Source: Escherichia phage AV125. Taken from it: a stretch of 64,000 bases of DNA. The stretch lies in the sequence record OR352955.1, one strand, 5' to 3'. Every line of letters starts with the position of its first letter. Position 1 is the first letter of the stretch. The notes under the pieces were generated by a model. The model worked only from the letters and a program-made list of their open reading frames with translations, had not been told where the DNA came from and searched no databases. Made by a program: the position numbers and the translations under genes. Positions 13,383 to 41,681 of the stretch are shown piece by piece.

Positions 13383-13387
13383 TAAAG

Positions 13388-13412
13388 ATGCCCCGCAAGG
13401 GGCATTTGTTAT
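13388..13412 (+). terminator. intrinsic terminator
   Basis: ATGCCCC-gcaa-GGGGCAT hairpin then TTGTT. Confidence 0.55.
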
Positions 13413-13470
13413 GGAGGGATTTTAGTTATTCTTTTGTTGTAGGCTCGCACTAATAGCTAAAGGGGGAGGT

Positions 13471-26436: not shown

Positions 26437-26480
26437 TTGACACCGGATCACGCTTACACTATTATTTATCACGTAGGGCA
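26437..26480 (+). promoter_or_regulatory. early promoter with conserved leader start but no stem-loop (cassette 21)
   Basis: TTGACA 26437; TATTAT 26460; TATCACGTAGGGC leader. Confidence 0.5.
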
Positions 26481-26895: not shown

Positions 26896-26911
26896 ATAAC
26901 ATTTCATACCA

Positions 26912-26937
26912 GGGCGCATCAAGCGCCCTTTCTTTTT
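26912..26937 (+). terminator. intrinsic terminator (copy 2 of repeated terminator)
   Basis: GGGCGC-atcaa-GCGCCC then TTTCTTTTT, identical to 22001-22026. Confidence 0.65.
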
Positions 26938-26999
26938 GCCCGAATAATGTTGATAGCTTTCGCCTATGAAAAACCGACACAGAACAAAACTGAATAAAT

Positions 27000-27420
27000 C
27001 ACGGTATCGAGCTAATCGACCATTAAACGAATAACCATACATCCCAGGGCAACAGGCTGTTAGAGAGCTATTTAGAGCGGTTAAAATCGATCAACAACCA
27101 ACAACAAACCATCAAAAACACCCTTTTACCTCTTTTCTAGTGCAATGATAACCATTATCATCTATCATTGATTATCTATTCAATATAAGTGCATAACTAT
27201 AATGTTGATAATAGTTCGCAACAACTAACCAACAAACAACATAAAACAATAAGCAAACTAATCATAATCAAAGGAATAATAGCAAGATGACTGATAACGA
27301 CAAACAATCAAACCATGATGAATATTAAACAAGATAACGATAACACGACAAAACAACCAACTAACGAACAATAACAAACGAAACCATTAAAAGATCAACT
27401 ATTAGCAAAATAGTGTATAT
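27000..27420. other. noncoding A/C-rich tract, strongly G- and T-depleted on plus strand
   Basis: Long runs such as aaccaacaaacaacataaaacaataagcaaactaatcataatc; no ORF on either strand. Confidence 0.6.
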
Positions 27421-27505
27421 TGCCATAATAGTGACTGAATGAAATCATTACAAAACGAATCATTCCAAGGATCATCATTAGCACGCTACGCCGGACACGT
27501 AGCGA

Positions 27506-27633
27506 GCTAATAATAAGCCAACTACACCCCAACAATCATAACCATCGGTGATGGTTATTTCTTGTTACTGCGTAGCTTGCAATAATTGCAAGCGTAATGA
27601 CGCTTACACTTATTGCGCTGGCTTATTATTAGC
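27506..27633. repeat. 128-bp element bounded by perfect 15-bp inverted repeats, with nested palindromes
   Basis: GCTAATAATAAGCCA (27506-27520) vs TGGCTTATTATTAGC (27619-27633); inside: ATAACCATC-ggt-GATGGTTAT (27538-27558), TTGCAAT-a-ATTGCAA (27577-27591), AAGCGT-aatg-ACGCTT. Confidence 0.6.
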
Positions 27634-28091
27634 ATTATATGTAATTACTAAGATCATAACATTAGCGCAATAACAATAATCATTGTAATAGTTACAAGAT
27701 GAGATCATTAGCAAGATGAATAATTGCACGTAGCAACATGAGCGAATAGCGACAGGTTGCATAGTGTGCACATAGTGTATAAACATACAAGAAAATAAAG
27801 GCTAATCTTTTGGGGGCGAATACTATCGCTACGCGATATGTTGAGCACCTTCTCTTAAACGTAAATAAAATCAGAATAATCTTGATTTATTTTAGTTTTT
27901 ATGTTAATAAACGTTTAAATAATAATCATTCTCATATAAATAATAGTCTGCTTGTCATGAGCGGGATCAGTTGACAATGTTCCGTCATATGATGAAGTTG
28001 CCAAACCATTGATAAATAAGTGTTTGTGTGATTTATAATCAAGTGGCCCACCTTGTCGCTACGTTGGTATGAGCCTTGCATAAGTCATTGA

Positions 28092-28120
28092 ATACGAATG
28101 ATAATTATTCTCATTCGTAT
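28092..28120. promoter_or_regulatory. operator-like inverted repeat sharing the ATGAGAA/TTCTCAT half-site
   Basis: ATACGAATGA-taattattc-TCATTCGTAT; related AATCATTCTCAT at 27924-27935. Confidence 0.45.
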
Positions 28121-28456
28121 GATATTTGGGAATTGTCGCTGCGTGGACCTGACGGCCCGAAAATTCGCGTTAAGCACTTCTTACGTATGCGCCATGATTT
28201 TTGCCATATGATATTGATTCTATTAGATATTCTTGCCATGATTGCCATGAAACAGGGTGTCCCGAAATAATCTCTCCCCGTAGATATTTTGGGTTACTTT
28301 TTATACAAGAGTGGGGTGTCAAAAATAATCGGTATATATAGGATAATTGATAGGAATCCCCTATGATAATTCGATTGTAATTCCCTAAGATTGATCGTAT
28401 GATGTTGGTGATTGATGATTGCCATGAAAGATGGCTAACGATGAGAGGAGATTGTC

Positions 28457-28801
28457 ATGCAAGAGAGTAAAAATGTTCCGTTGAGTAGTTTACGTCTAAT
28501 GAAGTTTTACAAAGCTTGGCTTGCTGGTGAGGTAGAAGGTCACACAACGAGTGGTTTGTGCATATGTTTGATTAAGTATGTAGAGGGAACATACCCTGAT
28601 GAACTGTTACCTCGTCTACAACAAGAGATGAAATCACAGTTTATTGGTGCAGGATTGGATTACAATTTCCCGTTTAATGAAGGTGGTTATGAGGAATACA
28701 CCTTTGAACATAAAAAACATATTTGCCATAAAAACAAACATCGTATACAATGGGTGCTAGATAGAATTCAAGATTATGAAGGAGAGAAAGATGACAAATA
28801 G
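28457..28801 (+). CDS. paralog family A member 1 (114 aa)
   Basis: FYKAWL..GLC..L....EM..QF..AGLDYNFPFN...RIQWV.DRI family signature. Confidence 0.6.
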   Translation: MQESKNVPLSSLRLMKFYKAWLAGEVEGHTTSGLCICLIKYVEGTYPDELLPRLQQEMKSQFIGAGLDYNFPFNEGGYEEYTFEHKKHICHKNKHRIQWVLDRIQDYEGEKDDK

Positions 28802-29159
28802 TATTCCGTTGAGCAGTGCAACATTGCTTCGCTTCTATAAAGCATGGATTGCCAACTATCCTGCAATGAATCGCACAACGAGTGGCTTATGTGGTTGTCT
28901 GGTAGACTATGTAGATGATTTTGTTGGTGATACACCTAGAGAAGAAGATAGAAAATGGCGTGATCATTTGTTGGACCGTTTGAAATATGAAATGAGGAAA
29001 CAATTTACATGTGCAGGACTGGACTACAATCTTCCGTTCAATGCAGATTGCATGGATTACCTTTCAGAGTGTATAAACTTGGCGTGTCATACCAACACGT
29101 TACGTCTTCAGTGGGTGAAAGATCGGATTGAAGATGCAAATAATGCTTGCATTGAATAA
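28791..29159 (+). CDS. paralog family A member 2 (122 aa)
   Basis: Start ATG 28791 after AAGGAGAG; FYKAWI..GLCGCL..EMRKQF..AGLDYNLPFN..RLQWVKDRI. Confidence 0.6.
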   Translation: MTNSIPLSSATLLRFYKAWIANYPAMNRTTSGLCGCLVDYVDDFVGDTPREEDRKWRDHLLDRLKYEMRKQFTCAGLDYNLPFNADCMDYLSECINLACHTNTLRLQWVKDRIEDANNACIE

Positions 29160-29208
29160 AGATGTTTGTATAATGGATGACATAACAGATAGCCAATGAG
29201 GAGATGAA

Positions 29209-29418
29209 ATGAAGAATTTGAAAACTGTCACAATGTTCTTGACTGATCCTACACGTGTGCAAGCACTGGCTAAAGCCAGCCGTGTAGCTGTAGAATTCCA
29301 AAACTTTAAGCCGTCCGTTGTGACAGGCAGTGAAACGTGTGTTATCGATTTCATTAACGAATACTTCCGAGGGAATCCGGTTGGTCGTTACTTTATTAAG
29401 GGTCTGAAGGATGCATAA
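29209..29418 (+). CDS. hypothetical protein (69 aa)
   Basis: ORF track; GAGGAG upstream. Confidence 0.5.
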   Translation: MKNLKTVTMFLTDPTRVQALAKASRVAVEFQNFKPSVVTGSETCVIDFINEYFRGNPVGRYFIKGLKDA

Positions 29419-29641
29419 CATGAAACGCATGAAAATTCGTATTGAGAATGATGGTGGTTATAAAGGATTGGCACATGCAAAATTTCCACTTGTGTTGGAA
29501 GCTACTGTGGAATACAGTGGGCTTGCTCATGTGCGATTCTCGAAGATGATGGAAGTGCAGGAATGGTTTTGGGACGAGATAGATGCACGAGAAGGGGAAG
29601 ATTATGTTTTCTTTCCTCACGAATATGAAATTGTCTATTAA
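29411..29641 (+). CDS. hypothetical protein (76 aa)
   Basis: ORF track. Confidence 0.5.
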   Translation: MHNMKRMKIRIENDGGYKGLAHAKFPLVLEATVEYSGLAHVRFSKMMEVQEWFWDEIDAREGEDYVFFPHEYEIVY

Positions 29642-29653
29642 GGGTTGTGTGCA

Positions 29654-29893
29654 ATGATCACACCACAACAGAATGAAGCAGCAATGGATCTTCTCGATAG
29701 TTTGTATTTCGATAACTGGTACTCTGAATGTGAATGGATGAATATGCAAACTCTGAAAGAGAAGACAGAAGCGTTGATTACAGTAGATCAATTTCTTGCA
29801 GAGACGGAAAGAATGAATTATGATATGGCATCTCGCGCACGACGCGTTTCCATTTTCAATAAAATGTTAGCATTATGGGGAGGTAGAAAATGA
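29654..29893 (+). CDS. hypothetical protein (79 aa)
   Basis: Track ORF 29645 (TTG) shortened to ATG 29654. Confidence 0.45.
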   Translation: MITPQQNEAAMDLLDSLYFDNWYSECEWMNMQTLKEKTEALITVDQFLAETERMNYDMASRARRVSIFNKMLALWGGRK

Positions 29894-30351
29894 GACAACC
29901 ATCTATACTGGAAGCGCATGTGCAATGTGTTGTAGATTATGTCAAAGAACACTCAAGTTTATTAAATGTAACCTGTGCAGTGCAAAATGATGTAGGCATT
30001 GTCTGTGTGCAACATATCTTATCTGAAACTCGTTATGAAGTATTTCGTGCCACGTTGTTTGGATGTGATCGAGTGCATGTAAACTTCCTGGACTCCAATT
30101 ATCGTTATGCTTTAGAAAATATTGATGATTATCTTCCTTGCTCTCCGACAGGATATGTAATGGTAACAGCAAACGAAGTAACACCAAGCAACAGTGAACG
30201 GGAAGCTTTGTTACGGAAGAAAATACGCCAACTGAAAATGCTGATGGAAATGCAAGAAGAGATTGAAAAAGAACTGAAAGAAGATTTTGGTATGCTTCCA
30301 AAAGACGCTTTGAAATGGTATGATGAACTAGGAGGAGAGAGCAATGTTTAA
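29890..30351 (+). CDS. hypothetical protein (153 aa)
   Basis: ATGA overlap; GGAGGTAG upstream. Confidence 0.55.
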   Translation: MRQPSILEAHVQCVVDYVKEHSSLLNVTCAVQNDVGIVCVQHILSETRYEVFRATLFGCDRVHVNFLDSNYRYALENIDDYLPCSPTGYVMVTANEVTPSNSEREALLRKKIRQLKMLMEMQEEIEKELKEDFGMLPKDALKWYDELGGESNV

Positions 30352-30802
30352 AGAAGGTCATGTCTACCGTTTCCAGGATGAGGATTATATGCGACTATAT
30401 TCTACCTTTGATAACAGTATTGCGGCTATCATTGGAGAGAATTTTTTCGAGGTGTTGAGCACTGATGCAAATGGTAATATCTTGTCAATGGTTGTAATAG
30501 GTATGAGAGATGGTATTATCACTGCTGGTGATGGGGATCGTTACATAATCAATTCTGCTCATATAGATTATTTTGTTGACGGTGGTGTTCGTGGTGGTCG
30601 TGGAAAACCCCAAGAAGAACCTGTTGATACAACAAAAGAAGAGTGGTATGTTGTAATGACTGATGACACCTGTATTTCTGGATTTGAAAGTTATGAAGAA
30701 GCTTTGAAAGAAGCAGCAGAGCATAAAATGGCTAATCCTACAGAAGAGGTTGAAGTTTATAAACGTATGGTTGTTGCTACCATCGGTGTATCTTTTGTTT
30801 AA
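30344..30802 (+). CDS. paralog family B member 1 (152 aa)
   Basis: N-terminus MFKEGHVYRF; family MFK.G.VY.F...E...F; C-terminal EVYKRMVVATIGVSF. Confidence 0.55.
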   Translation: MFKEGHVYRFQDEDYMRLYSTFDNSIAAIIGENFFEVLSTDANGNILSMVVIGMRDGIITAGDGDRYIINSAHIDYFVDGGVRGGRGKPQEEPVDTTKEEWYVVMTDDTCISGFESYEEALKEAAEHKMANPTEEVEVYKRMVVATIGVSFV

Positions 30803-30814
30803 AAGGGGAATGTT

Positions 30815-31600
30815 ATGTTTAAAGTAGGTTTTGTTTATAATTTCAAATCGGAAGATACCAAAAAGAATTTTGGTAAAGCTAGTATTGGTAACGCTTTCTT
30901 TGTAGGTTGCATTCAAGATAGCAAGTTTAAAGTTTTGGATGTTGATTTTCTTGGTTCTGTATCTAAGGTGAAGGTATTAGACACAAATAAAATCATCGAA
31001 GCTGGTTCTGGGCTTTTCCCTGAAGGTTATAAGCTTGTAAGTTGTATGGATTATACTCGTTTTGAAGAACATACTCCTGAAGATTATGAAGATTCTCCTA
31101 CAGGAGGCTGTGTCTTTGTAGAAGGTGGTGTCTATAAGTTTGCAAGTGAACAAGATCGTAAGCTTTTCGCCAATTATATTGACGGCGGACAAACGACAAA
31201 CAATGTAAACCGAAAAATTTCCGATCTTATTGGCGATGATCCTTTCGTGATCACAAAGATGGTTGGACAAGATGTAACAGCAATCCGTAGGCTTGTATGT
31301 AATACAAATCATGTAGCAGGTGAAGGCTGGTTCAAGGAAGCTTGTGCGCTGCTAATCAAAAGCGATAACCCTTATTTTAAAAATATTAAAGATGTTGTTG
31401 AGCCTAAACAAGAGGAATCCGCAGCGAATTTTAAACACTATGCTATTGTTAAAGGTATGAATGTCCAACTGGTGTCACATTCTTACGAAGAGATCGCCAC
31501 AGAAGCAAAAAAGATGAAAGAAGAATACCCAATTTCTACTGTTGAGATCTATGAGCGTATTGGTGTTGTTAGTATTGAGCCTACTGCGGTAATAAAATAA
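30815..31600 (+). CDS. paralog family B member 2 (261 aa)
   Basis: MFKVGFVYNFKSED; C-terminal EIYERIGVVSIEPT resembles member 1. Confidence 0.6.
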   Translation: MFKVGFVYNFKSEDTKKNFGKASIGNAFFVGCIQDSKFKVLDVDFLGSVSKVKVLDTNKIIEAGSGLFPEGYKLVSCMDYTRFEEHTPEDYEDSPTGGCVFVEGGVYKFASEQDRKLFANYIDGGQTTNNVNRKISDLIGDDPFVITKMVGQDVTAIRRLVCNTNHVAGEGWFKEACALLIKSDNPYFKNIKDVVEPKQEESAANFKHYAIVKGMNVQLVSHSYEEIATEAKKMKEEYPISTVEIYERIGVVSIEPTAVIK

Positions 31601-31609
31601 GGAGCTATT

Positions 31610-32047
31610 ATGTTCAAAGCTAATGCTGTTTACTGTTTCAAAAGCAAAGCTGCATGTGAAGCTTTCTCTACAATCTCTGATGAAAATTTCAAAATGGCAG
31701 CTTTGATTGAAGGGTCTTGTTTCCGCGTCGAAGATGTTAGTGAATCAGGATCTGTTTGCTCGTTGACTTTATTGGACAGCGGAGATATTATTGAAGCTGG
31801 ACAGTATCCGTTCAGAAGTTGGGAGATATTGTTAGCTCGTGGAGAGCGTAACTTTTTTATGTGCGTGTCTGCGGGGGAAGTTGTGAAAGAAACTAAGGAT
31901 GTTTCTGTTTACAATTCTGAATTTATAAGTTATAGTGAGTATCAACATCTGGAAGGCATTGTTGGTCACTTGTTATCTCTGATTGACATTGAATGTGACT
32001 TGCCTGAATCATTGAAAGAAGAGTTGAAAGCATTAGATCTGCTGTAA
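31610..32047 (+). CDS. paralog family B member 3 (145 aa)
   Basis: MFKANAVYCFKSKA. Confidence 0.55.
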   Translation: MFKANAVYCFKSKAACEAFSTISDENFKMAALIEGSCFRVEDVSESGSVCSLTLLDSGDIIEAGQYPFRSWEILLARGERNFFMCVSAGEVVKETKDVSVYNSEFISYSEYQHLEGIVGHLLSLIDIECDLPESLKEELKALDLL

Positions 32048-32074
32048 TGTTCCGCACAACGAAAGGAGAATAAA

Positions 32075-32374
32075 ATGAATCTGACCGAACAGTTACGCCG
32101 TATTGCAAAAGAAGCTTCCTTCAACTTCCCTGTTGAAGAAGTGATCGAGACATGTTTTGCTGAAGCACGAGCGGGAAACTCTTCAAGAAATTTCACGCCA
32201 TCTGATTTTGGTCTGGATAATTCCCCTACCCACCCAGGGGAGATCTACAATCAGGTGAAGTGGATGGATGAAGCAGTAGCAATTCTTCGTGAGCGTGGGC
32301 TTATTGTTTATAAAGAAATGGATCTGAACGGGGCATACGAGTGGATCACTATTGATTGGTCGGAGGTGAAATAA
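32075..32374 (+). CDS. hypothetical protein (99 aa)
   Basis: AAAGGAGAA upstream. Confidence 0.55.
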   Translation: MNLTEQLRRIAKEASFNFPVEEVIETCFAEARAGNSSRNFTPSDFGLDNSPTHPGEIYNQVKWMDEAVAILRERGLIVYKEMDLNGAYEWITIDWSEVK

Positions 32375-32583
32375 TGGTTACTATCACATTGACAGTTACA
32401 CAAGAGCAAGCAGAAGAATTACGTGATGCAGTGGCATACATGGGACGCTCTTATTATATGCCTTATAAATCACAAGATGTTTTTGCTACAGCCATTGAGA
32501 AAGCTTTAAACAAATATCGAGAAACTCATGCCGTTCCTAAAGTATCGGCGGAAGAGTTTGGCACTTGGCACGAAGTTCACTGA
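32374..32583 (+). CDS. hypothetical protein (69 aa)
   Basis: Start ATG 32374 after GGAGGTG; TAATG overlap. Confidence 0.45.
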   Translation: MVTITLTVTQEQAEELRDAVAYMGRSYYMPYKSQDVFATAIEKALNKYRETHAVPKVSAEEFGTWHEVH

Positions 32584-32593
32584 GGAGGTTTCG

Positions 32594-32827
32594 ATGAAAG
32601 GTAACAAGATGAAAGTTAATCAAGTGCCGAGCGCATACACTTTGTGGCTTGCGCGAGCGTTACACCAGACGATCAAAAACCCTAAGAAGCCAATGAAGAG
32701 CGGGAAGAAGTTTATGTCTAAGGGCAAAACAACCTTTGGCTTCACTCGTATGTCTGTTAAGATGAAAAGACTGGGGTACAAGCCAAACTACGCTCGTTAC
32801 CCTTCTGAATACAACTGGTTTGACTAA
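32594..32827 (+). CDS. small basic protein (77 aa)
   Basis: Start ATG 32594 after GAGGAGG; lysine/arginine-rich. Confidence 0.45.
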   Translation: MKGNKMKVNQVPSAYTLWLARALHQTIKNPKKPMKSGKKFMSKGKTTFGFTRMSVKMKRLGYKPNYARYPSEYNWFD

Positions 32828-32840
32828 AAGGAGGAAGATT

Positions 32841-33017
32841 ATGGCTACTTTTCAACAATTGAAAGATGTTTCACGTTTAGTAAGAAAAATCCGAGAAGCA
32901 GACGCTGCTGTGCGGAATGCATTAACGCCAGCAGAGCGTGAAGATCTTGAAGAGGAGGTTAAAACAGCCGAGAATGCTTTTGCTGTGTATCTTTCAACAC
33001 TGTACACAGGGGGTTAA
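32841..33017 (+). CDS. hypothetical protein (58 aa)
   Basis: Start ATG 32841 after AAAGGAGGAAG. Confidence 0.4.
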   Translation: MATFQQLKDVSRLVRKIREADAAVRNALTPAEREDLEEEVKTAENAFAVYLSTLYTGG

Positions 33018-33332
33018 ATGTCAGAAGAACTTAAAGAATTTTATCAAGCCTATCATAATTGGCTGTTAGCTGGTGCTCCAGATAATAATCCTTTCTGGCA
33101 CGATAAAGGTTTGTGCAGTTGCCTCTATCTTTGGTCTGGTGGTTATGATGACCTAAATTATGAAATGCAAATGCAATTTCGAGAAGCAGGATTGTCTGAA
33201 GAATACCCGTTTGATGACGGAGACTGGTTTAAATATGATTTTGCACAAAGAAACGGGCTATTGCATTTGAATGCTGCCCGTATAAGATGGGTAAAAGATC
33301 ATGCTACACAGGAGGATGTGCAATGCCAATAG
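33018..33332 (+). CDS. paralog family A member 3 (104 aa)
   Basis: FYQAYHNWLLAGAPDNNPF..GLCSCL..EMQMQF..AGL..PF....RIRWVKDH. Confidence 0.6.
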   Translation: MSEELKEFYQAYHNWLLAGAPDNNPFWHDKGLCSCLYLWSGGYDDLNYEMQMQFREAGLSEEYPFDDGDWFKYDFAQRNGLLHLNAARIRWVKDHATQEDVQCQ

Positions 33333-33523
33333 TGTTTAGTTTCTTGGTAATTGTTATGGTTGTTCTTTTCGCGGCATGGCTTTGGGATTTTGACCCAGGA
33401 GCAGCGCAGCAAAGAGCTACAGACTGGAAAGAACAATGTATTGTGCTCAAACATGAACGAAATGCAGAGAAATTTCTTGACCTGGAGTGTGATCGCCTTG
33501 TAAGATACAAGCAAGACAAATAA
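33323..33523 (+). CDS. small membrane-anchored protein (66 aa)
   Basis: Start ATG 33323; MPIVFSFLVIVMVVLFAAWLW transmembrane helix. Confidence 0.45.
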   Translation: MPIVFSFLVIVMVVLFAAWLWDFDPGAAQQRATDWKEQCIVLKHERNAEKFLDLECDRLVRYKQDK

Positions 33524-33537
33524 CCTTGAGGTGCAAA

Positions 33538-33726
33538 ATGGTAATTGAGATTAAACTTGAGTATGCTGGCGCTGTTGCTCTGATCGCACAAATGCTTGGA
33601 GCAAAGATTGAAGAAGTGTATATCAACGCTTGGAGCGTAGAGATTGATGTTCCTATGGACAACATTGCTAATCGCTTGCTGGTGGCAGAGTGTGAACGCA
33701 CCAACATAATCTACAAAGGAGCATAA
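33538..33726 (+). CDS. hypothetical protein (62 aa)
   Basis: Start ATG 33538 after GAGGTG. Confidence 0.4.
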   Translation: MVIEIKLEYAGAVALIAQMLGAKIEEVYINAWSVEIDVPMDNIANRLLVAECERTNIIYKGA

Positions 33727-33727
33727 T

Positions 33728-33949
33728 ATGAAAATTAGAGTTTGTGATGTATTGGGTTATGTTGGTTTTGAGAATGTTCAGATTCCTTTTGTTGTTGAAG
33801 CACATCTTGTTAGTGAGGATATGACAACATTCTTTGTTACGATAGAAGAAATGTCCAAAGTTGAGGGATGGGAGTGGTTTGAAGAAGATGTTTGGGAAGG
33901 TTGTGATTACGTATTCTTCTCTGATGAAGTGAATGTTCTTTCGGAGTAG
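33728..33949 (+). CDS. hypothetical protein (73 aa)
   Basis: ORF track; AAGGAG upstream. Confidence 0.5.
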   Translation: MKIRVCDVLGYVGFENVQIPFVVEAHLVSEDMTTFFVTIEEMSKVEGWEWFEEDVWEGCDYVFFSDEVNVLSE

Positions 33950-33951
33950 GT

Positions 33952-34158
33952 ATGTCTTGTTTTACAAAAGCAGTATCCATATGTAAGAAACAGTATGAAA
34001 GTGATTACGGAATATTTAATATTCCAGCGGATCATACAGAGTATTGTTCATGTGGTGGCAGAATGAAGAAAACAGTGATTTATGCGGATAATGGAGATGA
34101 ACTTGTTCCGGTTATTGTTTGCAAAGCTTGTCATTCTGTTAAAACATTAAAAGCGTAA
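33952..34158 (+). CDS. zinc-ribbon protein (68 aa)
   Basis: CSCGG...CKAC cysteine pairs. Confidence 0.45.
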   Translation: MSCFTKAVSICKKQYESDYGIFNIPADHTEYCSCGGRMKKTVIYADNGDELVPVIVCKACHSVKTLKA

Positions 34159-34253
34159 GGAGTCGGGACACCCGACGATTGGAGCTAAAAATTTTGCGTA
34201 CAACCCTTTTCGCCCAACAGGGGCGCGTCGGGTAAATAAAGAGGAGAGTTTAT

Positions 34254-34652
34254 ATGAAAAAGATCATCGTAGGTTTCTTGTTACTCATTGCATCACTTGG
34301 AACAGCAAATGCGTCTCAAGTTTATGAGTGTGTGTCAGATGTGGTTGTTAAAAATCTGAAAGGTGAAGTGATTTCTGGTCCTAAGAAAATGGCTTCTGTT
34401 GTCATTAATAAAGATAACTCCTTTATCCTTAAAAATTCAGGCGGTGCTTTGATGAGTGGCATTCTGCAATACACAGGAGAAAAAAGTAAAGATGGTAGTG
34501 CTATGTACGGTTCACAACAATTTATTGGCACTACTGAAGTTGTGATGATGCGCACAGAGTATCGAGACACTTTGGCTTGGTTTGCATTTCTAAAAAATGA
34601 TAAAACAATAACGAATGTTCTTACTCTAGAAGCTGATTGTACGCAACGATAA
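34254..34652 (+). CDS. predicted secreted protein (132 aa)
   Basis: Signal-peptide-like MKKIIVGFLLLIASLGTANA. Confidence 0.55.
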   Translation: MKKIIVGFLLLIASLGTANASQVYECVSDVVVKNLKGEVISGPKKMASVVINKDNSFILKNSGGALMSGILQYTGEKSKDGSAMYGSQQFIGTTEVVMMRTEYRDTLAWFAFLKNDKTITNVLTLEADCTQR

Positions 34653-34662
34653 GGGAGTATTT

Positions 34663-35109
34663 ATGACTAAAGTGCGACATTATGCTGTAAACTGCAATGA
34701 TGTTTGGCGTTTGTGTCCTGATGATCCGACAGAAGGCACATTTGTAAGATATGAGGATTATAAAGAGTTATCGGATGCTGTGATCGCATTGTTAACTGAT
34801 ATCCGTTCACGTTATCCAGGACAAGATTTCACTTGCCCTCACATCAAACTTCTTGCTTGTCTGGTAGAAGGTGAGAAAGAAGTGGAAGATGGCTTCAAGC
34901 GTGTAGAGTATCAAGGTGAAACTTTAGAGGTTCCTGAATTTGTTAATTATATTGCAACAGATTCGAGTGGCGAGCGTTATGGCTACAGCCATAAGCCAGA
35001 GATTCCTGATTGGATTCCCGCTTGGAGATATTCCGTTAGTACCGGAGACTATATCTTCCTTGGTGTAGGTAGTAGTAAGGATTGGCGTTTCTCTTTGACA
35101 GAGGTTTAA
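34663..35109 (+). CDS. hypothetical protein (148 aa)
   Basis: ORF track; AAGGGAG upstream. Confidence 0.55.
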   Translation: MTKVRHYAVNCNDVWRLCPDDPTEGTFVRYEDYKELSDAVIALLTDIRSRYPGQDFTCPHIKLLACLVEGEKEVEDGFKRVEYQGETLEVPEFVNYIATDSSGERYGYSHKPEIPDWIPAWRYSVSTGDYIFLGVGSSKDWRFSLTEV

Positions 35110-35113
35110 TAAT

Positions 35114-35377
35114 ATGGAAGAAACATTGCCAGCAGCATATCGTTTGAATGATGAGCGTATTTGGGAGTGGACCGACGTTTCTTGTTTTTACCCTGAAATA
35201 GTTCAATATTGGCGAGCGAAAGGGTGTGTTGTAGTTATCAACCCTTGTGGACCAGTAGATGAAGATTGCTTGTATCTCGATGGGAAGTGGCACAGTTATT
35301 GTCGCTGGGCTTTTGAGTGGATGTGTAAAGAAGATCTCCCAGAGGGTTGGGAGTATCCAAAAGCAAATAGGAGATAA
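35114..35377 (+). CDS. hypothetical protein (87 aa)
   Basis: ORF track. Confidence 0.5.
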   Translation: MEETLPAAYRLNDERIWEWTDVSCFYPEIVQYWRAKGCVVVINPCGPVDEDCLYLDGKWHSYCRWAFEWMCKEDLPEGWEYPKANRR

Positions 35378-35378
35378 T

Positions 35379-35741
35379 ATGTCTAAAGATTTTGTTGAAG
35401 TATTTGTCAAAGATGAAGAAACTGGTTTAGGCACGGGTTTCATTTGTGAAGAAACTTTTAAGCGTGAACAAGAAAAAGCTATTCTTATGCACCGCTATGA
35501 TCATGCATTAGAACAATGGAAAAATGCAGAACAAAAATGCAAAAACCTTTATGCAGAAAATAGAAAACTACAAGATCAAATGGAGTTGTTAGCTATCAGT
35601 TTACGATCTCTCATTTTGGCTGTAGAAGACGGTTTTAAAAATCCAGATGGTTTTCCTGTGAGCGATATTGAACATGATTTGTATCTTGCTCGTGGTGCTT
35701 ACTTTTATGTTAAACAGAAGTCTGTAGAAGGAGAGAAGTGA
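35379..35741 (+). CDS. hypothetical protein (120 aa), predicted coiled coil
   Basis: Track ORF 35259 shortened to ATG 35379 after TAGGAGA, removing overlap with 35114 gene. Confidence 0.5.
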   Translation: MSKDFVEVFVKDEETGLGTGFICEETFKREQEKAILMHRYDHALEQWKNAEQKCKNLYAENRKLQDQMELLAISLRSLILAVEDGFKNPDGFPVSDIEHDLYLARGAYFYVKQKSVEGEK

Positions 35742-35938
35742 TGGAAGAAAAACTGGAACGTATTATCGAGTTAGCCATGTCTATTGGCTACGACGATTGT
35801 TTTCTCCAAACTATTGGAGAAACACAGAACGATTACGACTCTTGGGTGAAAGAGTTGGAAGAACTCAAAACTTCCTTGATTGCTGACTTTGCTGAAGCAG
35901 AGGATAAAGCGGATCGTTACAACTATCTGTGTCGATAA
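35738..35938 (+). CDS. hypothetical protein (66 aa)
   Basis: ATGA overlap. Confidence 0.45.
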   Translation: MMEEKLERIIELAMSIGYDDCFLQTIGETQNDYDSWVKELEELKTSLIADFAEAEDKADRYNYLCR

Positions 35939-35941
35939 ACC

Positions 35942-35969
35942 TTGACATTTCTTTTATGTATGGTATACA
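35942..35969 (+). promoter_or_regulatory. sigma70-type promoter
   Basis: TTGACA 35942 - 16 nt - TATACA 35964. Confidence 0.4.
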
Positions 35970-36000
35970 TACATTATCAACGTGAGCAAGGTGGTGTAAT

Positions 36001-36273
36001 ATGAATAAAGATCGGTTTCTTTCTTTAGTCGCGGAAGCGCCTTTTGATGTTCTTGGGGTGAGATTATGGAAAGACAGAAACTATGGGTTAGATGTTCAAA
36101 CATATTCTCTTTGGTTGGTTGGGGAGCACAGCTTAGATGAAAGCTTGTGCATGGGTAGGGATTCTCGTTCCCTTTGTTTAAAGTTTAGAAGCTTAGAACG
36201 CGCAAACAAAGAGCAAGAAAAACTAACGAGGTGGCTAAATGAAAACAAGCGCAGGGTTGATGGAGTTTTATAA
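36001..36273 (+). CDS. hypothetical protein (90 aa)
   Basis: ORF track; AAGGTGG upstream. Confidence 0.5.
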   Translation: MNKDRFLSLVAEAPFDVLGVRLWKDRNYGLDVQTYSLWLVGEHSLDESLCMGRDSRSLCLKFRSLERANKEQEKLTRWLNENKRRVDGVL

Positions 36274-36565
36274 AATTTATCTAGCATGGATTGATGTTGG
36301 TGCTCCTGATGGTAAACCTTTTCGGCGGGATTGTGGTTTGTGTGCCAACTTGTTCGATTATGTGCACAGAGGTAATTACAATCCCCTTATAACAACCTTG
36401 TCAGATGAAATGCACGCACAGTTTTACCACAAAGGGTTGAGTCAAGAATTACCCTTCAATGAGAACTACGATGCATATGTCTTAGAATCAGATGCAGGGG
36501 TATGTCACCTGAACGTGGACAGGATTAATTGGGTAAGAGATCGTATTGCAGAGGAGGATGAATAA
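36239..36565 (+). CDS. paralog family A member 4 (108 aa)
   Basis: FYKIYLAWIDVGAPDGKPF..GLCANL..EMHAQF..GL..PFN...CHLNVDRINWVRDRI. Confidence 0.55.
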   Translation: MKTSAGLMEFYKIYLAWIDVGAPDGKPFRRDCGLCANLFDYVHRGNYNPLITTLSDEMHAQFYHKGLSQELPFNENYDAYVLESDAGVCHLNVDRINWVRDRIAEEDE

Positions 36566-36792
36566 TGTCGGATTATAACTGGTATGAACTTGAAGCTGTT
36601 TGTCAGTTTTATGATTCAATAGTTCTGCGTGATCCAATCTGTCAAGAATTAAGTCGCCGTGCAAGTGCATTGGCAATCCGTGTTAAAATAAACGGTTGGA
36701 ACGCAGATTTGGAAAAAGAGTTGGCATTTCTCTTAGAAAACACGCGGGTCTTCCGCAAAGTGTTCCCTGAATGGTTTGAGATGGAGGAATAA
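36565..36792 (+). CDS. hypothetical protein (75 aa)
   Basis: ORF track. Confidence 0.5.
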   Translation: MSDYNWYELEAVCQFYDSIVLRDPICQELSRRASALAIRVKINGWNADLEKELAFLLENTRVFRKVFPEWFEMEE

Positions 36793-36794
36793 CC

Positions 36795-37010
36795 ATGTGG
36801 ATTGTCCGTCTTAAATATGATGGTCCAGGTTCTTGGGTGCATAATGTTTGTGGTTGCGATTCCGAAGAAGCAGCACACAAAGCAGGAAGAGCAGTAAGTG
36901 CCTTCTATAATGACAAACCTCTTTGTTTAGAGATGGCAGGTGTGGTGAGCATGAGTATGTTTGAATACTACTCCTATGATATTAAAAAACATGAAGGAGA
37001 GTGGAAATGA
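36795..37010 (+). CDS. hypothetical protein (71 aa)
   Basis: ORF track; GGAGGAATAACC upstream. Confidence 0.5.
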   Translation: MWIVRLKYDGPGSWVHNVCGCDSEEAAHKAGRAVSAFYNDKPLCLEMAGVVSMSMFEYYSYDIKKHEGEWK

Positions 37011-37327
37011 GCGAAGAACTATTAACATTTTACCGCACGTATTTGGCATGGTTGGAAGCTGGTGCTCCTGAAGGTGAACCGTTCACCCGTTGCACAGGTT
37101 TGTGCTCTAACCTCTATGATTTTTACGATATGGGGGAAAGCGAACGATACGAACCTGTACTGGATGAAATGCATGAGCAGTTCTACCGCAAAGATTTGGT
37201 TATGGTATTGCCTTTCAACAGTAATTTTGGAAAGTACACCTTAGAAGCGGAAAAAAGCCGCTGTCATTTGAATGTGGATCGTGTGAACTGGGTAAAAGAA
37301 CGTGTAGCAGAAGAAATAATTGGTTGA
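37007..37327 (+). CDS. paralog family A member 5 (106 aa)
   Basis: Start ATG 37007 (ATGA overlap); FYRTYLAWLEAGAPEGEPF..GLCSNL..EMHEQF..PFN..CHLNVDRVNWVKERV. Confidence 0.6.
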   Translation: MSEELLTFYRTYLAWLEAGAPEGEPFTRCTGLCSNLYDFYDMGESERYEPVLDEMHEQFYRKDLVMVLPFNSNFGKYTLEAEKSRCHLNVDRVNWVKERVAEEIIG

Positions 37328-37381
37328 CAGAAGGATCTGTCTTTGTCATAATCATCTCATCGAAACAGAGAGGAGAAAATC

Positions 37382-37795
37382 ATGAAAAAATTTATTTGCA
37401 CCCGTTCCACTAACAGTGATATCCTTGTAGGTAAGGTTATCAAAGGAGAACTCTTCCATGCAAATGGTAAGAAATATATCCTGCTGAAAGATTCTTTCAA
37501 CGGGGAATATCCGCGCTGCACTTTCTTTAATTACAACACTCCATTTGCTTTAGAAGGAGATGCTTGGGAATGGGCTGAACTCAATCCTTGTTGTGAAGAA
37601 GAAGAATCTATGTTCTTAGGTTTAAACGTTTACCGTGTAGATTACACCATGTGCGGAGCGGAACATTCTGTTCGCGTAGAAGCCGAATCCAAACTACAAG
37701 CACCTTTCAAGGCAGGATTGACTTTGGGTCATTGTTTGGCAAACATTGAAGATGTTGTGATCCAAAGAGTTGTTTTAGAGAAAGAGGCTATTTGA
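37382..37795 (+). CDS. hypothetical protein (137 aa)
   Basis: ORF track; GAGAGGAG upstream. Confidence 0.55.
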   Translation: MKKFICTRSTNSDILVGKVIKGELFHANGKKYILLKDSFNGEYPRCTFFNYNTPFALEGDAWEWAELNPCCEEEESMFLGLNVYRVDYTMCGAEHSVRVEAESKLQAPFKAGLTLGHCLANIEDVVIQRVVLEKEAI

Positions 37796-37849
37796 CAGAA
37801 GACGGTACAATATTTAAAATATAAAGATTAACCACAAAAGGAGAGAAAC

Positions 37850-38149
37850 ATGCAAGTTGAAGACCTGATCAAGATTCTGAATAAAGCCAAAGAGAAGGGT
37901 GCTATCAAAGACTGGAAACGTGAAACAAGTGAAGACCTATCTCACTGTTGCCGAGAATTTTACATCGAAGGTATTGCTGACGATCATTATATTATCGAAT
38001 GGTATATCAACTTAATGACTCTTAAGCACGGTTCGTTTGAGGTTTGGTTTGATGATATTGATGTAAATGGTTTTCATCCTGGCTATAAAATCGCTATGCA
38101 GTTATCTTATCGTAGAGAAGTTGTAGCACATTTGGGTTTACATAACTAA
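37850..38149 (+). CDS. hypothetical protein (99 aa)
   Basis: ORF track. Confidence 0.55.
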   Translation: MQVEDLIKILNKAKEKGAIKDWKRETSEDLSHCCREFYIEGIADDHYIIEWYINLMTLKHGSFEVWFDDIDVNGFHPGYKIAMQLSYRREVVAHLGLHN

Positions 38150-38159
38150 GGAGAAAAGA

Positions 38160-38483
38160 ATGCAAGCAGTTGTTAACGAAGCTATTATGAACTTATCCTT
38201 TTTGTTAGCTGGTTTAGGAGGTGTTCTCATAGGTTTGGCTCTTATCTGGTGTATTCGTCGATTAATCGGGTACCGACAAAAAGGTGTTTCATGTTTTGTA
38301 TCTTACAATTTTACAACTGCTTACAGCAATGAGGTTGGATCTGGCAATGCTCAAGCATTTTTACCAACATATCCTCCTACGGTGGAAGATATTCGAAACT
38401 TGGAAGTAGAACTTATGGGACTAAGTGATAACTATACATCTCTAGTTATTCAAAATATTTTTCGACTAAAACAGGAGGCGTGA
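38160..38483 (+). CDS. membrane protein (107 aa)
   Basis: Hydrophobic LSFLLAGLGGVLIGLALIWCI. Confidence 0.5.
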   Translation: MQAVVNEAIMNLSFLLAGLGGVLIGLALIWCIRRLIGYRQKGVSCFVSYNFTTAYSNEVGSGNAQAFLPTYPPTVEDIRNLEVELMGLSDNYTSLVIQNIFRLKQEA

Positions 38484-38696
38484 ATGAAGGTACATTACCC
38501 TCATCCCTTTGATCCTAAAAACAAAGCCGTAATTCTTCGTCAGTGGCAACGGGTTTGTCGTACTAAATGTCCAATCAATAGCCCACACAATGTAGACAAG
38601 GACTATCTTGGGACATTTGTTGAATACACTTACATAGACAAAAACAAGCGTAAACAACATGTCGAGGAATACTGCTTAAGAGTAGAATGGCTGTAA
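38484..38696 (+). CDS. hypothetical protein (70 aa)
   Basis: ORF track. Confidence 0.5.
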   Translation: MKVHYPHPFDPKNKAVILRQWQRVCRTKCPINSPHNVDKDYLGTFVEYTYIDKNKRKQHVEEYCLRVEWL

Positions 38697-38708
38697 ATAA
38701 TAAATACC

Positions 38709-38737
38709 TTGACAAGTGTTTATTCGTTTTGTAAAGT
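38709..38737 (+). promoter_or_regulatory. sigma70-type promoter
   Basis: TTGACA 38709 - 17 nt - TAAAGT 38732. Confidence 0.4.
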
Positions 38738-38766
38738 GAGGATACAGCAATGGTTTAGGAGTGGTT

Positions 38767-39438
38767 ATGAAAAAGTTTGTTGTTTACAGTCGTCTTTCTA
38801 AACAGAAAAAAGGTGAGGCACAATATGGTATGGAGAGCCAAGAGAACGATATCCGTTACTTCTTAGACTCTGTGCCTGATGCGGAAGTTATTGGTCAATT
38901 TTCTGAATACTATTCGGGTAAGGGCGATTGGAAGCAACGTAAGGAACTGGTTAAAGCGGTTGAAATGTGTAAAGCTACCGGAGCAACTTTATTGGTAGCT
39001 AAAGTTGACCGCTTGGGTCGTAACAACGCCTCCGTAGCAACTCTTCTAGAAATGATCGATGTTAAGATAGCCATCATGCCAGACGCAGATAAAATGGTTA
39101 TACAGCTTCTGTCTGTTCTGGCTGAACAAGAAGTTAGAGGTATTGCTGATCGTATTAAAAAGGGTCTTGCTGTAGCAAAAAGCAAAGGTGTTTTATTAGG
39201 CAGTGCTAATCCTAAAACTGCCGCTGCACGTAGAAAAGGAAAAATGGAATACAACTCTGTTAAAGCAGACGCTTTTGCAGAGACATTCCGTGAACGTTTG
39301 GAGATCCTTAGAGATTTAAATACACCTTACAAAACTATTGCTGAAAAATTCAATAGTAAGAAAATAGCAACAGCACGTGGTGGTAAATGGGATGCTAAAA
39401 CTGTTTCTCGTTTGTGTGCCAGACTGAACATTAAATAG
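38767..39438 (+). CDS. serine recombinase (resolvase/invertase family)
   Basis: 223 aa; N-terminal VVYSRLSKQKK (catalytic Ser context), LLVAKVDRLGRN and QLLSVLAEQEVRGIADRIKKGLAVAKSKGVLLG match resolvase catalytic-domain motifs as remembered. Confidence 0.7.
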   Translation: MKKFVVYSRLSKQKKGEAQYGMESQENDIRYFLDSVPDAEVIGQFSEYYSGKGDWKQRKELVKAVEMCKATGATLLVAKVDRLGRNNASVATLLEMIDVKIAIMPDADKMVIQLLSVLAEQEVRGIADRIKKGLAVAKSKGVLLGSANPKTAAARRKGKMEYNSVKADAFAETFRERLEILRDLNTPYKTIAEKFNSKKIATARGGKWDAKTVSRLCARLNIK

Positions 39439-39446
39439 GAGAGGAT

Positions 39447-39869
39447 ATGAAACAAGAAAATGAATCTGTAGATCACTTAATCATGCTGTCAGCCCTTTTT
39501 GCCGGATGGGACGTATTTTTTGAAAATTTGTTCAATTCTGCTACAGATGGTTCCGATTTTATGCGCCAGTTTAAACGACGAACTGTTGAGGACTATGCTT
39601 TCTATTCAGGTCGGATTGAAAAAGGTTACGAAGATACAAATACAACACTCACCATTAAAGTTTTAGATGTGATGTTTAGTGTTATAGATGCTATCGACGA
39701 AAGTCTTCCGATCCTAGACAATTGTAATACGAAAGCCTATGTTTACAAAATAGCTCGTGCTTATGTGTCTGCAAACAGTTGTCTTCTTTCCACCCAGATT
39801 GCCGTGAACAATCTTGCCAACTTGTTTGACGAAGGAGAAACTTTTTATGACAATCGATTTGAAGTGTAA
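39447..39869 (+). CDS. hypothetical protein (140 aa)
   Basis: ORF track. Confidence 0.5.
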   Translation: MKQENESVDHLIMLSALFAGWDVFFENLFNSATDGSDFMRQFKRRTVEDYAFYSGRIEKGYEDTNTTLTIKVLDVMFSVIDAIDESLPILDNCNTKAYVYKIARAYVSANSCLLSTQIAVNNLANLFDEGETFYDNRFEV

Positions 39870-40212
39870 GAGGATTCTTTTAGATTTCTATAATAATTGG
39901 TTAGAACACCTCCGTCTCTTTCCAAGAGAAAGTGGTTACGCTGATGTTGGCTTATGCCGAGGTCTGCGTATGTATATAAGTGATGAATTTCGGTCCGAGC
40001 ATTCTTTAGCATATTCTGTTTATGGTATGCAATTAGCCAGTTTTGAAAACGCTGGCTTAGATACAACTTTCCCATTTAACACAGCAAAATCTTTTGAGCA
40101 AGAGTGTAAGGAAAAACGTTGCATGTTTAATGAAAAACGTGTACAGTGGGTTAAGGATCGAGTTAAACAATTGGAACAAGAGTTGGATTTCTTTTATGAC
40201 GAGGCAGAATAA
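39847..40212 (+). CDS. paralog family A member 6 (121 aa)
   Basis: Start ATG 39847; FYNNWLEH..GLCRGL....AGLDTTFPFN..RVQWVKDRV. Confidence 0.55.
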   Translation: MTIDLKCKRILLDFYNNWLEHLRLFPRESGYADVGLCRGLRMYISDEFRSEHSLAYSVYGMQLASFENAGLDTTFPFNTAKSFEQECKEKRCMFNEKRVQWVKDRVKQLEQELDFFYDEAE

Positions 40213-40484
40213 TGGATAGACAAACCTTAAAAACAATGGCAGATGCTACTAATTCCCCGTACTTTGAAAAAGTAAGTAAATTGGTAGTTCAAGCCGCAGA
40301 GGAAGGATATTATAACATAAACATCCACAACCCAAATCTTATACTAGAAATGCCAAGCGATAAGAAGATACAAGAGAGTATCTGTGAAGGTATTGTTAGT
40401 TACTGGCGCGAGCGTGGGTGTGGTGCAAACATGGCTTTAGACAGTGCAAACATTGTAAGATATATAAATATTTCTTGGGGGTGA
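40212..40484 (+). CDS. hypothetical protein (90 aa)
   Basis: Overlapping start with upstream stop. Confidence 0.5.
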   Translation: MDRQTLKTMADATNSPYFEKVSKLVVQAAEEGYYNINIHNPNLILEMPSDKKIQESICEGIVSYWRERGCGANMALDSANIVRYINISWG

Positions 40485-40488
40485 TTTT

Positions 40489-41100
40489 ATGATTCAATGC
40501 ACTCATATCCAAATTACTTGGAGAGATGAACTTTACCATTTGGGACAATTTACTGTAGGGGAAACATACCCTGTCATTAAACATAATCCTAACATCGCAA
40601 ACTTTGACAGGATGGTTCTTGTTGAGGACGATCTAGGTCAAACTTATTCTTTAGATCTAAAATATCCGTTTTCTTACGGCTACGATTGGATCGTTACTTT
40701 TGAAGACGTGGAGGAAAATAAAGCAATGAACGAAAAAAATTCTTGGTATTATCGTTGTGAACTGCCGCCAGTAGGTGAAAAGGTTATCTTTGTTCCTGAT
40801 TTGGAAAGATATTCTTGGGACAGTTCTTATTCTGTTCCTAAAGAAGGCACCGAAGTTGAAGTTATTGCACATCGCACAACTTCACATGGTAACGATGTAG
40901 CAGTTGTTTTCTGGGATGATGAAGGCGCTGCTTGTGCAGGTGGCTTTGTTGCAGGTAATTTTGAACCCCTGCCAGATCCTTTGAAGGAGGCAATTTTAGG
41001 CGTAGCTTCTTTTGGACTCTCTTACACATCTGCACAAGAGATCGTAGAAGGTATTTTAAACGGTACCGTTCCAAACGAAATTTTTAAACAGATTAAATAG
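40489..41100 (+). CDS. hypothetical protein (203 aa)
   Basis: ORF track. Confidence 0.6.
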   Translation: MIQCTHIQITWRDELYHLGQFTVGETYPVIKHNPNIANFDRMVLVEDDLGQTYSLDLKYPFSYGYDWIVTFEDVEENKAMNEKNSWYYRCELPPVGEKVIFVPDLERYSWDSSYSVPKEGTEVEVIAHRTTSHGNDVAVVFWDDEGAACAGGFVAGNFEPLPDPLKEAILGVASFGLSYTSAQEIVEGILNGTVPNEIFKQIK

Positions 41101-41106
41101 TAGTTG

Positions 41107-41130
41107 CACCCCGTTCTGCGGGGTGTTATT
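41107..41130 (+). terminator. intrinsic terminator or attenuator
   Basis: CACCCCG-ttctg-CGGGGTG then TTATTGTAT. Confidence 0.45.
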
Positions 41131-41151
41131 GTATACGTAAAGGAGGCGCTA

Positions 41152-41511
41152 ATGTATTACACTGAAGACTACATATTGTATAACTTTTTTAAAGGCTGGT
41201 TGGAATGGGCGGAAAAAGCTCCTGTTGGAGATTGTGTTTTTCCTTGGGACTCTCGTCAAGGTTTGTGTCGTTGTTTGGAAGACTGGCTTATAACCACAAG
41301 CTACAATTCAGAGACTAAGAAATCTACATCAAAGAGACTAAAAATGTTATTTGAAGAAGATGGTTTAGATCCGATTTATCCTTTCGGTGCTGAAAGCTTC
41401 CACAATGGTCTTTTTCTTGGCACTCAACATTATGACAAAGATCGCGTAGATTGGGTAAAAGAAAAGGTAGCACAGTATGAATGGGGGCTAAGACTTATCA
41501 TCGTTGGTTAG
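41152..41511 (+). CDS. paralog family A member 7 (119 aa)
   Basis: Start ATG 41152 after AAGGAGG; FFKGWLEWAEKAPVGD..GLCRCL...DGLDPIYPFG..RVDWVKEKV. Confidence 0.55.
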   Translation: MYYTEDYILYNFFKGWLEWAEKAPVGDCVFPWDSRQGLCRCLEDWLITTSYNSETKKSTSKRLKMLFEEDGLDPIYPFGAESFHNGLFLGTQHYDKDRVDWVKEKVAQYEWGLRLIIVG

Positions 41512-41681
41512 AAAGTTATATTAAGAAATGTGAACTTGGTGTTCCAGGCTATACTTACGACACGGACGAGATCCTTGATGAAATGGAAGTTTGGTTTAAA
41601 GATCCTCGTGAACTATTGGAAAACATTCTAATGGCTTGGGATGGTACGGCACAAAGCATTGAAGGAGGTAGAAATGAGTAA
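41481..41681 (+). CDS. hypothetical protein (66 aa)
   Basis: ORF track; overlaps end of upstream gene in another frame. Confidence 0.4.
   Translation: MGAKTYHRWLESYIKKCELGVPGYTYDTDEILDEMEVWFKDPRELLENILMAWDGTAQSIEGGRNE

Follow-up and report, generated by a model that had tools for sequence, protein, structure and literature searches.

What are seven small, related genes doing in the genome of Escherichia phage AV125? The question arises from a 64,000-nucleotide (nt) stretch of this genome (sequence record OR352955.1; hereafter the window), in which an earlier note, made from the letters alone, had pointed to seven diverged copies of one small domain between positions 28,457 and 41,511. The window is ~96-98% identical to about 50 genomes of Phapecoctavirus. 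This genus comprises the phAPEC8-like phages of the Stephanstirmvirinae, virulent myoviruses of E. coli with genomes of about 150 kb. The 13-kb stretch with the seven genes sits in a 36-kb block of small plus-strand genes, with positive GC skew from about 10 to 46 kb, and the genes are called "hypothetical protein" in every annotated relative; in phage ukendt, five of the orthologous genes carry the depositors' note pVOG VOG7392. Our analysis showed that the seven are functional paralogs, built on one five-helix domain of ~100 amino acids (aa) that stands alone and is specific to phages. As for what they do, we tentatively favor an accessory part in the interaction with the host. The seven copies are listed below with E-values against a profile hidden Markov model (HMM) built from the seven and against the independent profile PHROG 2510, and with the ratio of non-synonymous to synonymous substitution rates (dN/dS) among relatives.

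Copy 1, 28457..28801, plus strand: 114 aa, isoelectric point (pI) 5.9; Shine-Dalgarno sequence "gagaggag"; family HMM E 7e-41; PHROG 2510 E 6e-26; dN/dS 0.06.
Copy 2, 28791..29159, plus strand: 122 aa; Shine-Dalgarno sequence "gaaggagag"; family HMM E 2e-39; PHROG 2510 E 3e-25; dN/dS 0.20.
Copy 3, 33018..33332, plus strand: 104 aa, pI 4.5; family HMM E 2e-40; PHROG 2510 E 1e-28; dN/dS 0.02.
Copy 4, 36239..36565, plus strand: 108 aa, pI 4.8; family HMM E 2e-46; PHROG 2510 E 4e-32; dN/dS 0.35; the copy modeled with AlphaFold2 (AF2).
Copy 5, 37007..37327, plus strand: 106 aa, pI 4.6; family HMM E 1e-41; PHROG 2510 E 2e-30; dN/dS 0.25.
Copy 6, 39847..40212, plus strand: 121 aa; family HMM E 1e-38; PHROG 2510 E 2e-26; dN/dS 0.06; Met replaces His90.
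Copy 7, 41152..41511, plus strand: 119 aa; family HMM E 2e-38; PHROG 2510 E 1e-26; dN/dS 0.07; Asp replaces Asn92.

Each of these open reading frames (ORFs) begins with ATG at the first coordinate given and has a Shine-Dalgarno sequence of the GGAG/GAGG type 5-12 nt 5' of it. The products, 104-122 aa long, share 22-50% identity in pairs and could be aligned from one end to the other; 13 columns, spread along the whole length and of varied residue types, are invariant (L, F, G-L-C, L, F, L, P-F, R and W-V). When all six-frame ORFs of the window were searched with the profile made from the seven, only those seven were recovered (E about 1e-38 to 1e-46; next match 0.48), so the proposed seven-member family of one small domain was borne out to the exact starts. 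PHROG 2510, itself of unknown function, matched every copy (E about 3e-25 to 4e-32) over about positions 4-113 of its 219, and its conserved core of F/Y-x6-W, G-L-C, P-F and N-x-x-R-x-x-W-V is present in all seven. On the strength of these two sets of profile matches, the similarity is due neither to chance nor to low-complexity bias, a possibility that the earlier note had raised against itself. Two of its details needed adjustment. The motif string that it gave agrees with the consensus, but the segment GAPxGxPF is confined to copies 3-5 and, in part, copy 7; and the copies, described as dispersed over 13 kb, are in places close together, with an 11-nt overlap of copies 1 and 2 and a distance of 440 nt between copies 4 and 5.

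All seven products are acidic (pI 4.5-5.9, net charge -2 to -10), and each of the proteins is present on dozens to hundreds of database contigs. In copy 2, helices 2 and 3 are separated by 20 inserted residues and the conserved cysteine is part of a C-x-C; an alternative longer reading of this copy starts at 28776, and relatives annotate 369 nt. Copy 5 shares 50% identity with copy 4. Copy 7 is the most divergent and carries a 7-aa C-terminal extension (LRLIIVG) that runs into the next gene (41481-41681), the protein being 112 aa long in other relatives. A terminator-like hairpin at 41106-41126, just 5' of copy 7, is an annotated terminator in phage Schickermooser.

The domain is phage-specific and widespread. 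A HMMER search of 1.84 billion representatives returned at least 2,086 clusters (50% identity level) at E <= 1e-3 and 1,252 at E <= 1e-10. In the set used for detailed analysis, 179 retrieved proteins with 204 domains, most members are stand-alone proteins of 95-130 aa and 22/179 contain two or three tandem domains. With one copy as query, tblastn found 666 places on 259 GenBank phage records; the only match in a plasmid collection was on a phage-plasmid, and matches to the copy 4 model in BFVD were uncharacterized phage proteins only. PHROG 2510 and pVOG VOG7392 represent the same family, which has no assigned name, function or Pfam entry, and the 219-position PHROG profile is about twice as long as these proteins, in agreement with the occurrence of two-domain members. 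Gp3 of phage N4 also belongs here (E 5e-21 to the family profile), as do proteins of many N4-like phages. The domain is thus already catalogued, as PHROG 2510, pVOG 7392 and N4 gp3, and the genes are already public. Other carriers include the T7-like Ralstonia phage RSB1, the phi92-like (Justusliebigvirus) phages and, with four copies in tandem, the T4-like Yersinia phage JC221; coliphages and Salmonella phages of ~45-48 kb and ~137-143 kb were matched as well, with rV5- and T1-like groups as putative carriers.

Members of the family are surrounded by small genes that run in the same direction. N4 gp3 is located between the early genes gp1/gp2 and gp15/16 (PMC4496689). The RSB1 member lies directly 5' of a kinase-like early gene, and metagenomic members lie in arrays of small co-directional ORFans without Pfam domains. 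A conserved neighbor was sought at eight loci from different phage groups and none was found, N4 core genes excepted. Adjacent paralogs are the rule, with 2-4 neighboring copies in JC221 and in metagenomic loci.

Some longer members carry additional parts. An N-terminal transmembrane anchor was observed in three metagenomic members, P0156, P0060 and P0108; to judge from positive charges that directly follow the anchor, the domain would be cytoplasmic in P0108 and, less clearly, in P0156, and P0060 is ambiguous. Cys-rich, zinc-ribbon-like extensions are found at the N-terminus of P0081 and at the C-terminus of P0166, and P0157 (376 aa) holds two domains with an unrelated linker of about 130 aa between them.

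Is this a known domain under another name? The earlier note did not recognize it, and our searches agree. Scans of the seven copies and ten longer members against Pfam, NCBIfam and PADLOC gave nothing above cut-off, the best sub-threshold scores being 13.5 bits for YaeQ (cut-off 25) and 14.4 bits for DUF6149 (cut-off 27). A sequence search of the PDB with two family profiles and one single sequence found no relative (best E 0.46), and a protein search with a 72-sequence alignment gave 9 matches and no Pfam-annotated fusion partner. Copy 4, modeled by AF2 from a 31-sequence alignment, came out all-helical and with high confidence (predicted local distance difference test, pLDDT, 94.7; predicted template modeling score, pTM, 0.87), the helices being at residues 5-19, 34-43, 50-64, 77-85 and 93-107. 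Compared with the PDB by Foldseek, this model had no significant match (best E 1.3). Since neither the fold nor the sequence profile found a counterpart, the fold has no recognizable solved relative; nor did the profile and fold searches turn up a confident match to a housekeeping domain, which had been named as the finding that would speak against an effector family.

Conservation in the family is uneven. Across the 204 domains, otherwise about 25% identical, Cys35, Pro72, Phe73 and Arg95 are conserved at about 1.00, followed by Trp17 (0.99), Gly33 and Phe10 (both 0.97), Trp98 (0.96), Asn92 (0.91, with Asp at a further 0.07), Glu57 and Gln61 (both 0.80) and His90 (0.75, with Tyr at 0.13 and a remainder that includes Trp and Met). 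In the copy 4 model, Cys35 is at the N-terminus of helix 2 and Arg95 at the start of helix 5, a helix with conserved Arg and Lys/Arg. The conserved aromatic residues probably form the core. The invariant Cys and Arg appear to exceed the needs of a small helical fold and point to a candidate functional site.

How stable is the set of copies within the genus? The syntenic region holds five copies in phages vB_Ec-G1 and ukendt, six in phAPEC8_ev052 and Schickermooser, seven in the window, phAPEC8, ECO340P1 and ETEC-TG, and nine in phiWec181. Since copy number varies in this way among close relatives, the family is accessory. Copy 5 is missing in four relatives, namely vB_Ec-G1, ukendt, phAPEC8_ev052 and Schickermooser. 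In the first two of these, a single 375-nt hybrid, with its first ~11 codons from copy 1 and its body from copy 2, replaces copies 1 and 2:

Hybrid copy 1/2 gene, locus L001 946-1329 and locus L011 737-1120, in vB_Ec-G1 and ukendt.

The hybrid shows that copy 1 was lost through recombination between adjacent paralogs. There are no flanking repeats around the copies, the repeats in the region being residual coding homology inside genes, and a mobile cassette or homing element was rejected on this ground and because the copies are only 22-50% identical. A neighbor-joining tree of low resolution placed two local duplications, copies 1 and 2 and copies 4 and 5, beside deep branches for copies 3, 6 and 7; the four JC221 copies formed a separate, independent expansion. 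Within the genus, identity is 97-99% for copy 6 and 94-100% for copy 7, with the closest outside relatives at about 30%. As far as the tree and these identities indicate, the paralogs are ancient lineages rather than recent radiations.

What, then, may these proteins do? The best class that we can offer, put forward tentatively and without calling it probable, is that of accessory host-interaction proteins, serving takeover or counter-defense, with a conserved Cys/Arg site and working as oligomers. They would be made early in infection from the small plus-strand gene array and act in the host cytoplasm, in an accessory role toward the host and not in core replication or as part of the virion. 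The working unit would probably be a homo- or hetero-oligomer of domains, because paralogs are often adjacent or fused in one polypeptide. The scaffold would be conserved, and its functional site would need the invariant Cys at the N-terminus of helix 2 and the invariant Arg at the start of helix 5; Asn92, His/Tyr90, Glu57 and Gln61 may share the same site. A ligand or host factor shared by Proteobacteria would bind to this site or react with its thiol, and differences in the loop between helices 2 and 3, on the surfaces and in the C-terminal tails may give each paralog its own partner or specificity. An effector against a variable host target is plausible; it would agree with the location in early regions, with the variation in copy number and with the finding that no partner gene is conserved.

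There are phage proteins of comparable design. Acb2, Tad1 and Tad2 are small sponges of nucleotide signals; they come from unrelated phage groups, form oligomers and have conserved ligand-contact residues. The present family resembles them in size, in spread and in its presumed oligomeric state. A more specific version of the host-interaction proposal, to which we attach small credence, is that the domain is an undescribed fold with a reactive-Cys site that phages of Proteobacteria employ early in infection as a trap or chemical modifier of a conserved host molecule, be it an immune signal, a defense protein or a housekeeping protein, and that hetero-oligomers provide a combinatorial repertoire.

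Several points weigh against the host-interaction proposal. Early expression is suggested by gene layout and by other phages, and a promoter scan found 66 matches as against 56.5 +/- 6.9 in shuffles, that is, no enrichment. Oligomerization is proposed from gene fusions, and the AF2 model of the two-domain member P0071 has a pTM of 0.58, with its first domain lacking alignment support. The set of Cys35, Arg95 and polar residues is a candidate site by virtue of its conservation, and some of the conserved residues may be structural: Asn92 is at an expected helix N-cap, and Arg95 perhaps forms a buried salt bridge. His90 is not invariant (Met in copy 6), which argues against a Cys-His catalytic pair. 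Finally, there is no characterized homolog or fold match to lean on, and literature searches on phAPEC8 paralogs, N4 gp3, PHROG 2510 and Phapecoctavirus early genes yielded no mention of the family.

The main rival starts from the same residues. The proteins could be small thiol-dependent enzymes that serve the metabolism of the phage or its host and have, for instance, a nucleotide, a cofactor or a redox compound as substrate; the paralogs would then be isozymes rather than binders or inhibitors. The strict retention of Cys and Arg and the near-invariance of Asn, His/Tyr, Glu and Gln, in domains otherwise so divergent, speak for such an activity, as does the placement of the Cys at a helix N-terminus, which is a common position of reactive thiolates. 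We nevertheless consider an enzyme unlikely. A metabolic enzyme would not usually be present in 7-9 copies per genome, come and go between close relatives and be fused in tandem. About 25% of members have Tyr, Trp or Met at position 90 instead of His, and no enzyme fold or enzyme family was matched.

Individual families were compared in turn and rejected. An Erv/ALR or AhpD-like thiol enzyme is at odds with the single conserved Cys (a Cys is found at position 37 in 7% of domains and at position 89 in 37%), and the AhpD-like entry 2ijc reached only E 1.8 and a TM-score of 0.21 in Foldseek. A papain-like cysteine protease with a Cys-His(-Asn) site disagrees with the conservation of His90 (0.75, otherwise Tyr, Trp or Met) and with the all-helical fold. 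HEPN RNases are likewise all-helical and of about 100-130 aa, and some family members have R95-x6-H102 at the start of the last helix, reminiscent of the Rx4-6H motif; in contrast to HEPN proteins, His102 is found in 54% of the family and in 1/7 copies here, there is no significant fold match, and no HEPN protein was among the PDB fold matches listed. An E2 ubiquitin-conjugating enzyme (motif "HPN ... G-x-I-C-L") was dismissed because the motif runs in the opposite order here and the folds disagree. The cysteine is not part of a lipobox, as it is preceded by Leu and a signal peptide is absent.

Another rival takes the number of copies as its starting point. The earlier note had suggested a diversifying effector family, for example against a variable host target; read as an arms race, this would have positive selection drive the sequences apart. 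The many diverged copies, their variation from 5 to 9 among close relatives and the variable helix 2-3 loop and tails are in line with this idea. We calculated dN/dS by the Nei-Gojobori method, pooled over pairs, from nine related Phapecoctavirus loci. Given the little divergence among orthologs, the result applies gene-wide and not to single sites: copies 1-7 ranged from 0.02 to 0.35 and were indistinguishable from 30 neighboring genes (0.00-0.37). Purifying selection therefore maintains all copies, none of which stands out as diversifying. Copies 6 and 7, at about 94-100% identity across the genus, and the age of the paralogs also speak against an arms race. The word "diversifying" was consequently not upheld, and we regard positive selection by a variable host target as a distinctly unlikely explanation of the family.

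Less likely than the enzyme, and in our view very doubtful, is a nucleic-acid-binding regulator. Here the proteins would bind DNA or RNA and regulate phage gene expression, as transcription cofactors like N4 gp1/gp2 or as small repressors. Members do lie in early regions, in N4 adjoining the known transcription cofactors, and helix 5 has its conserved Arg and Lys/Arg. The acidity of all seven products, in contrast, argues against nucleic-acid binding, and neither an invariant Cys nor seven paralogs would be expected of such regulators. A helix-turn-helix or winged-helix protein was rejected, since no helix-turn-helix profile matched.

A name already in the databases suggests yet another function. 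CAM6581850.1 (P0208), an ortholog of the copy 1/2 hybrid, is labeled "Anti-restriction nuclease" in an E. coli assembly that evidently includes a phage contig of 153.7 kb. Together with the acidity of the proteins and their early region, the label would suit an acidic DNA-mimic anti-restriction protein related to T4 Arn; Arn, Ocr and ArdA are indeed also small, acidic and found among early genes. As homology this is refuted. Arn compared with the family profile gave an hhalign probability of 0.2%, BLASTP of Arn against CAM6581850.1 gave no alignment at E <= 100, no PDB match to Arn emerged by sequence or fold, and among the tblastn matches listed at E <= 1 none was on an Arn-annotated feature. 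In contrast to the acidic mimics, the family thus has no similarity to T4 Arn in sequence or profile, and its fold is without a match to any PDB entry. A relationship to Arn is accordingly highly improbable, and the label on CAM6581850.1, having no T4 Arn similarity behind it, is an annotation error that could spread. The weakest alternative, that the seven copies are no real feature and reflect chance similarity, low-complexity bias or decaying duplicated pseudogenes, has a negligible chance of being right in view of profile E-values of 1e-25 to 1e-46, conserved columns of varied residue types along the full length, intact frames with Shine-Dalgarno sites, purifying selection and a confident AF2 model.

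Duplication in this part of the genome is not limited to the seven genes. Two further sets of paralogs lie on the plus strand near the copies:

30344-30802, 30815-31600 and 31610-32047, plus strand: second multi-copy family, three adjoining goF-like genes 3' of copies 1 and 2.
29411-29641 and 33728-33949, plus strand: third paralog pair, 76 and 73 aa, each a few genes 3' of a family copy (copy 2 and copy 3, respectively).

The three goF-like genes (30344-32047) share an N-terminal "MFK-G-VY-F" module, of which the 261-aa protein has two. They match PHROGs 3710, 622 and 22975 and, weakly, PHROGs named "goF mRNA metabolism modulator", and some GenBank relatives annotate goF. Like the seven copies, they are multi-copy small proteins in the same plus-strand array, but they are unrelated in sequence and in PHROGs (3710, 622 and 22975). 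These repeats show local duplication to be a general habit of this genome region. The members of the third pair share 37% identity (BLASTP E 3e-13) and both belong to PHROG 15322 / pVOG 6032. Across the two sites, no relationship was detectable among the genes that separate the family copy from the pair member; the pair may be the remnant of a segmental duplication.

Upstream of copy 1, at ~26900-28456, lies an ORF-poor stretch of about 1.5 kb with GC content down to 0.37. A strong sigma-70-like promoter match (26437-26465) and terminator-like hairpins (26911 and 27538) were also seen 5' of copy 1, and several GenBank relatives start their record near window position 27844. A tRNA search found none within the window, and an Rfam scan of 25.5-42.5 kb gave no family at E <= 0.1.

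The window also contains the following genes of recognizable type:

38767-39438, plus strand: serine recombinase (Pfam Resolvase, E 5e-18), with copy 6 about 400 nt 3' of it.
12243-13382, plus strand: AAA-type ATPase with weak nSTAND-like Pfam matches; PHROG 2376.
13471-14931, plus strand, next to the ATPase: 486-aa protein with three CapR homology domains; PHROG 681 "endonuclease" and, more weakly, HNH.
61565-62557, minus strand: NAD-dependent sugar 4,6-dehydratase/epimerase (Pfam E 1e-79).
3022-4614, minus strand: UvrD-like helicase.
49339-50280, minus strand: DUF7277-DUF7275 protein.

The recombinase sits in the early array of a virulent myovirus and has a dN/dS of about 0.00 across relatives; Schickermooser annotates only a shorter ORF of 387 nt, and some records mislabel the protein as "methionine ABC transporter ATP-binding protein". 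The ATPase and the CapR-domain protein (12243-14931) are a pair out of the ordinary for a phage.

What the seven genes mean goes beyond AV125. The family numbers more than 2,000 clusters at 50% identity, is absent from Pfam and counts gp3 of the model phage N4 among its members. The strict Cys and Arg, the adjacent paralogs and tandem fusions, and the gain and loss of copies between near-identical phages hint at a specific, conserved biochemical activity rather than at a generic ORFan. Solving this activity would annotate thousands of phage genes together and could reveal a new mode of host handling; in phAPEC8-group phages considered for therapy, part of a large unknown early region would be accounted for. 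The anchors, zinc-ribbon-like extensions and linker variants could guide studies of localization or partners. If the reading of the domain as a reactive-Cys trap is true, the family would be a new class of phage proteins for counter-defense or takeover, several thousand strong and lacking any characterized relative.

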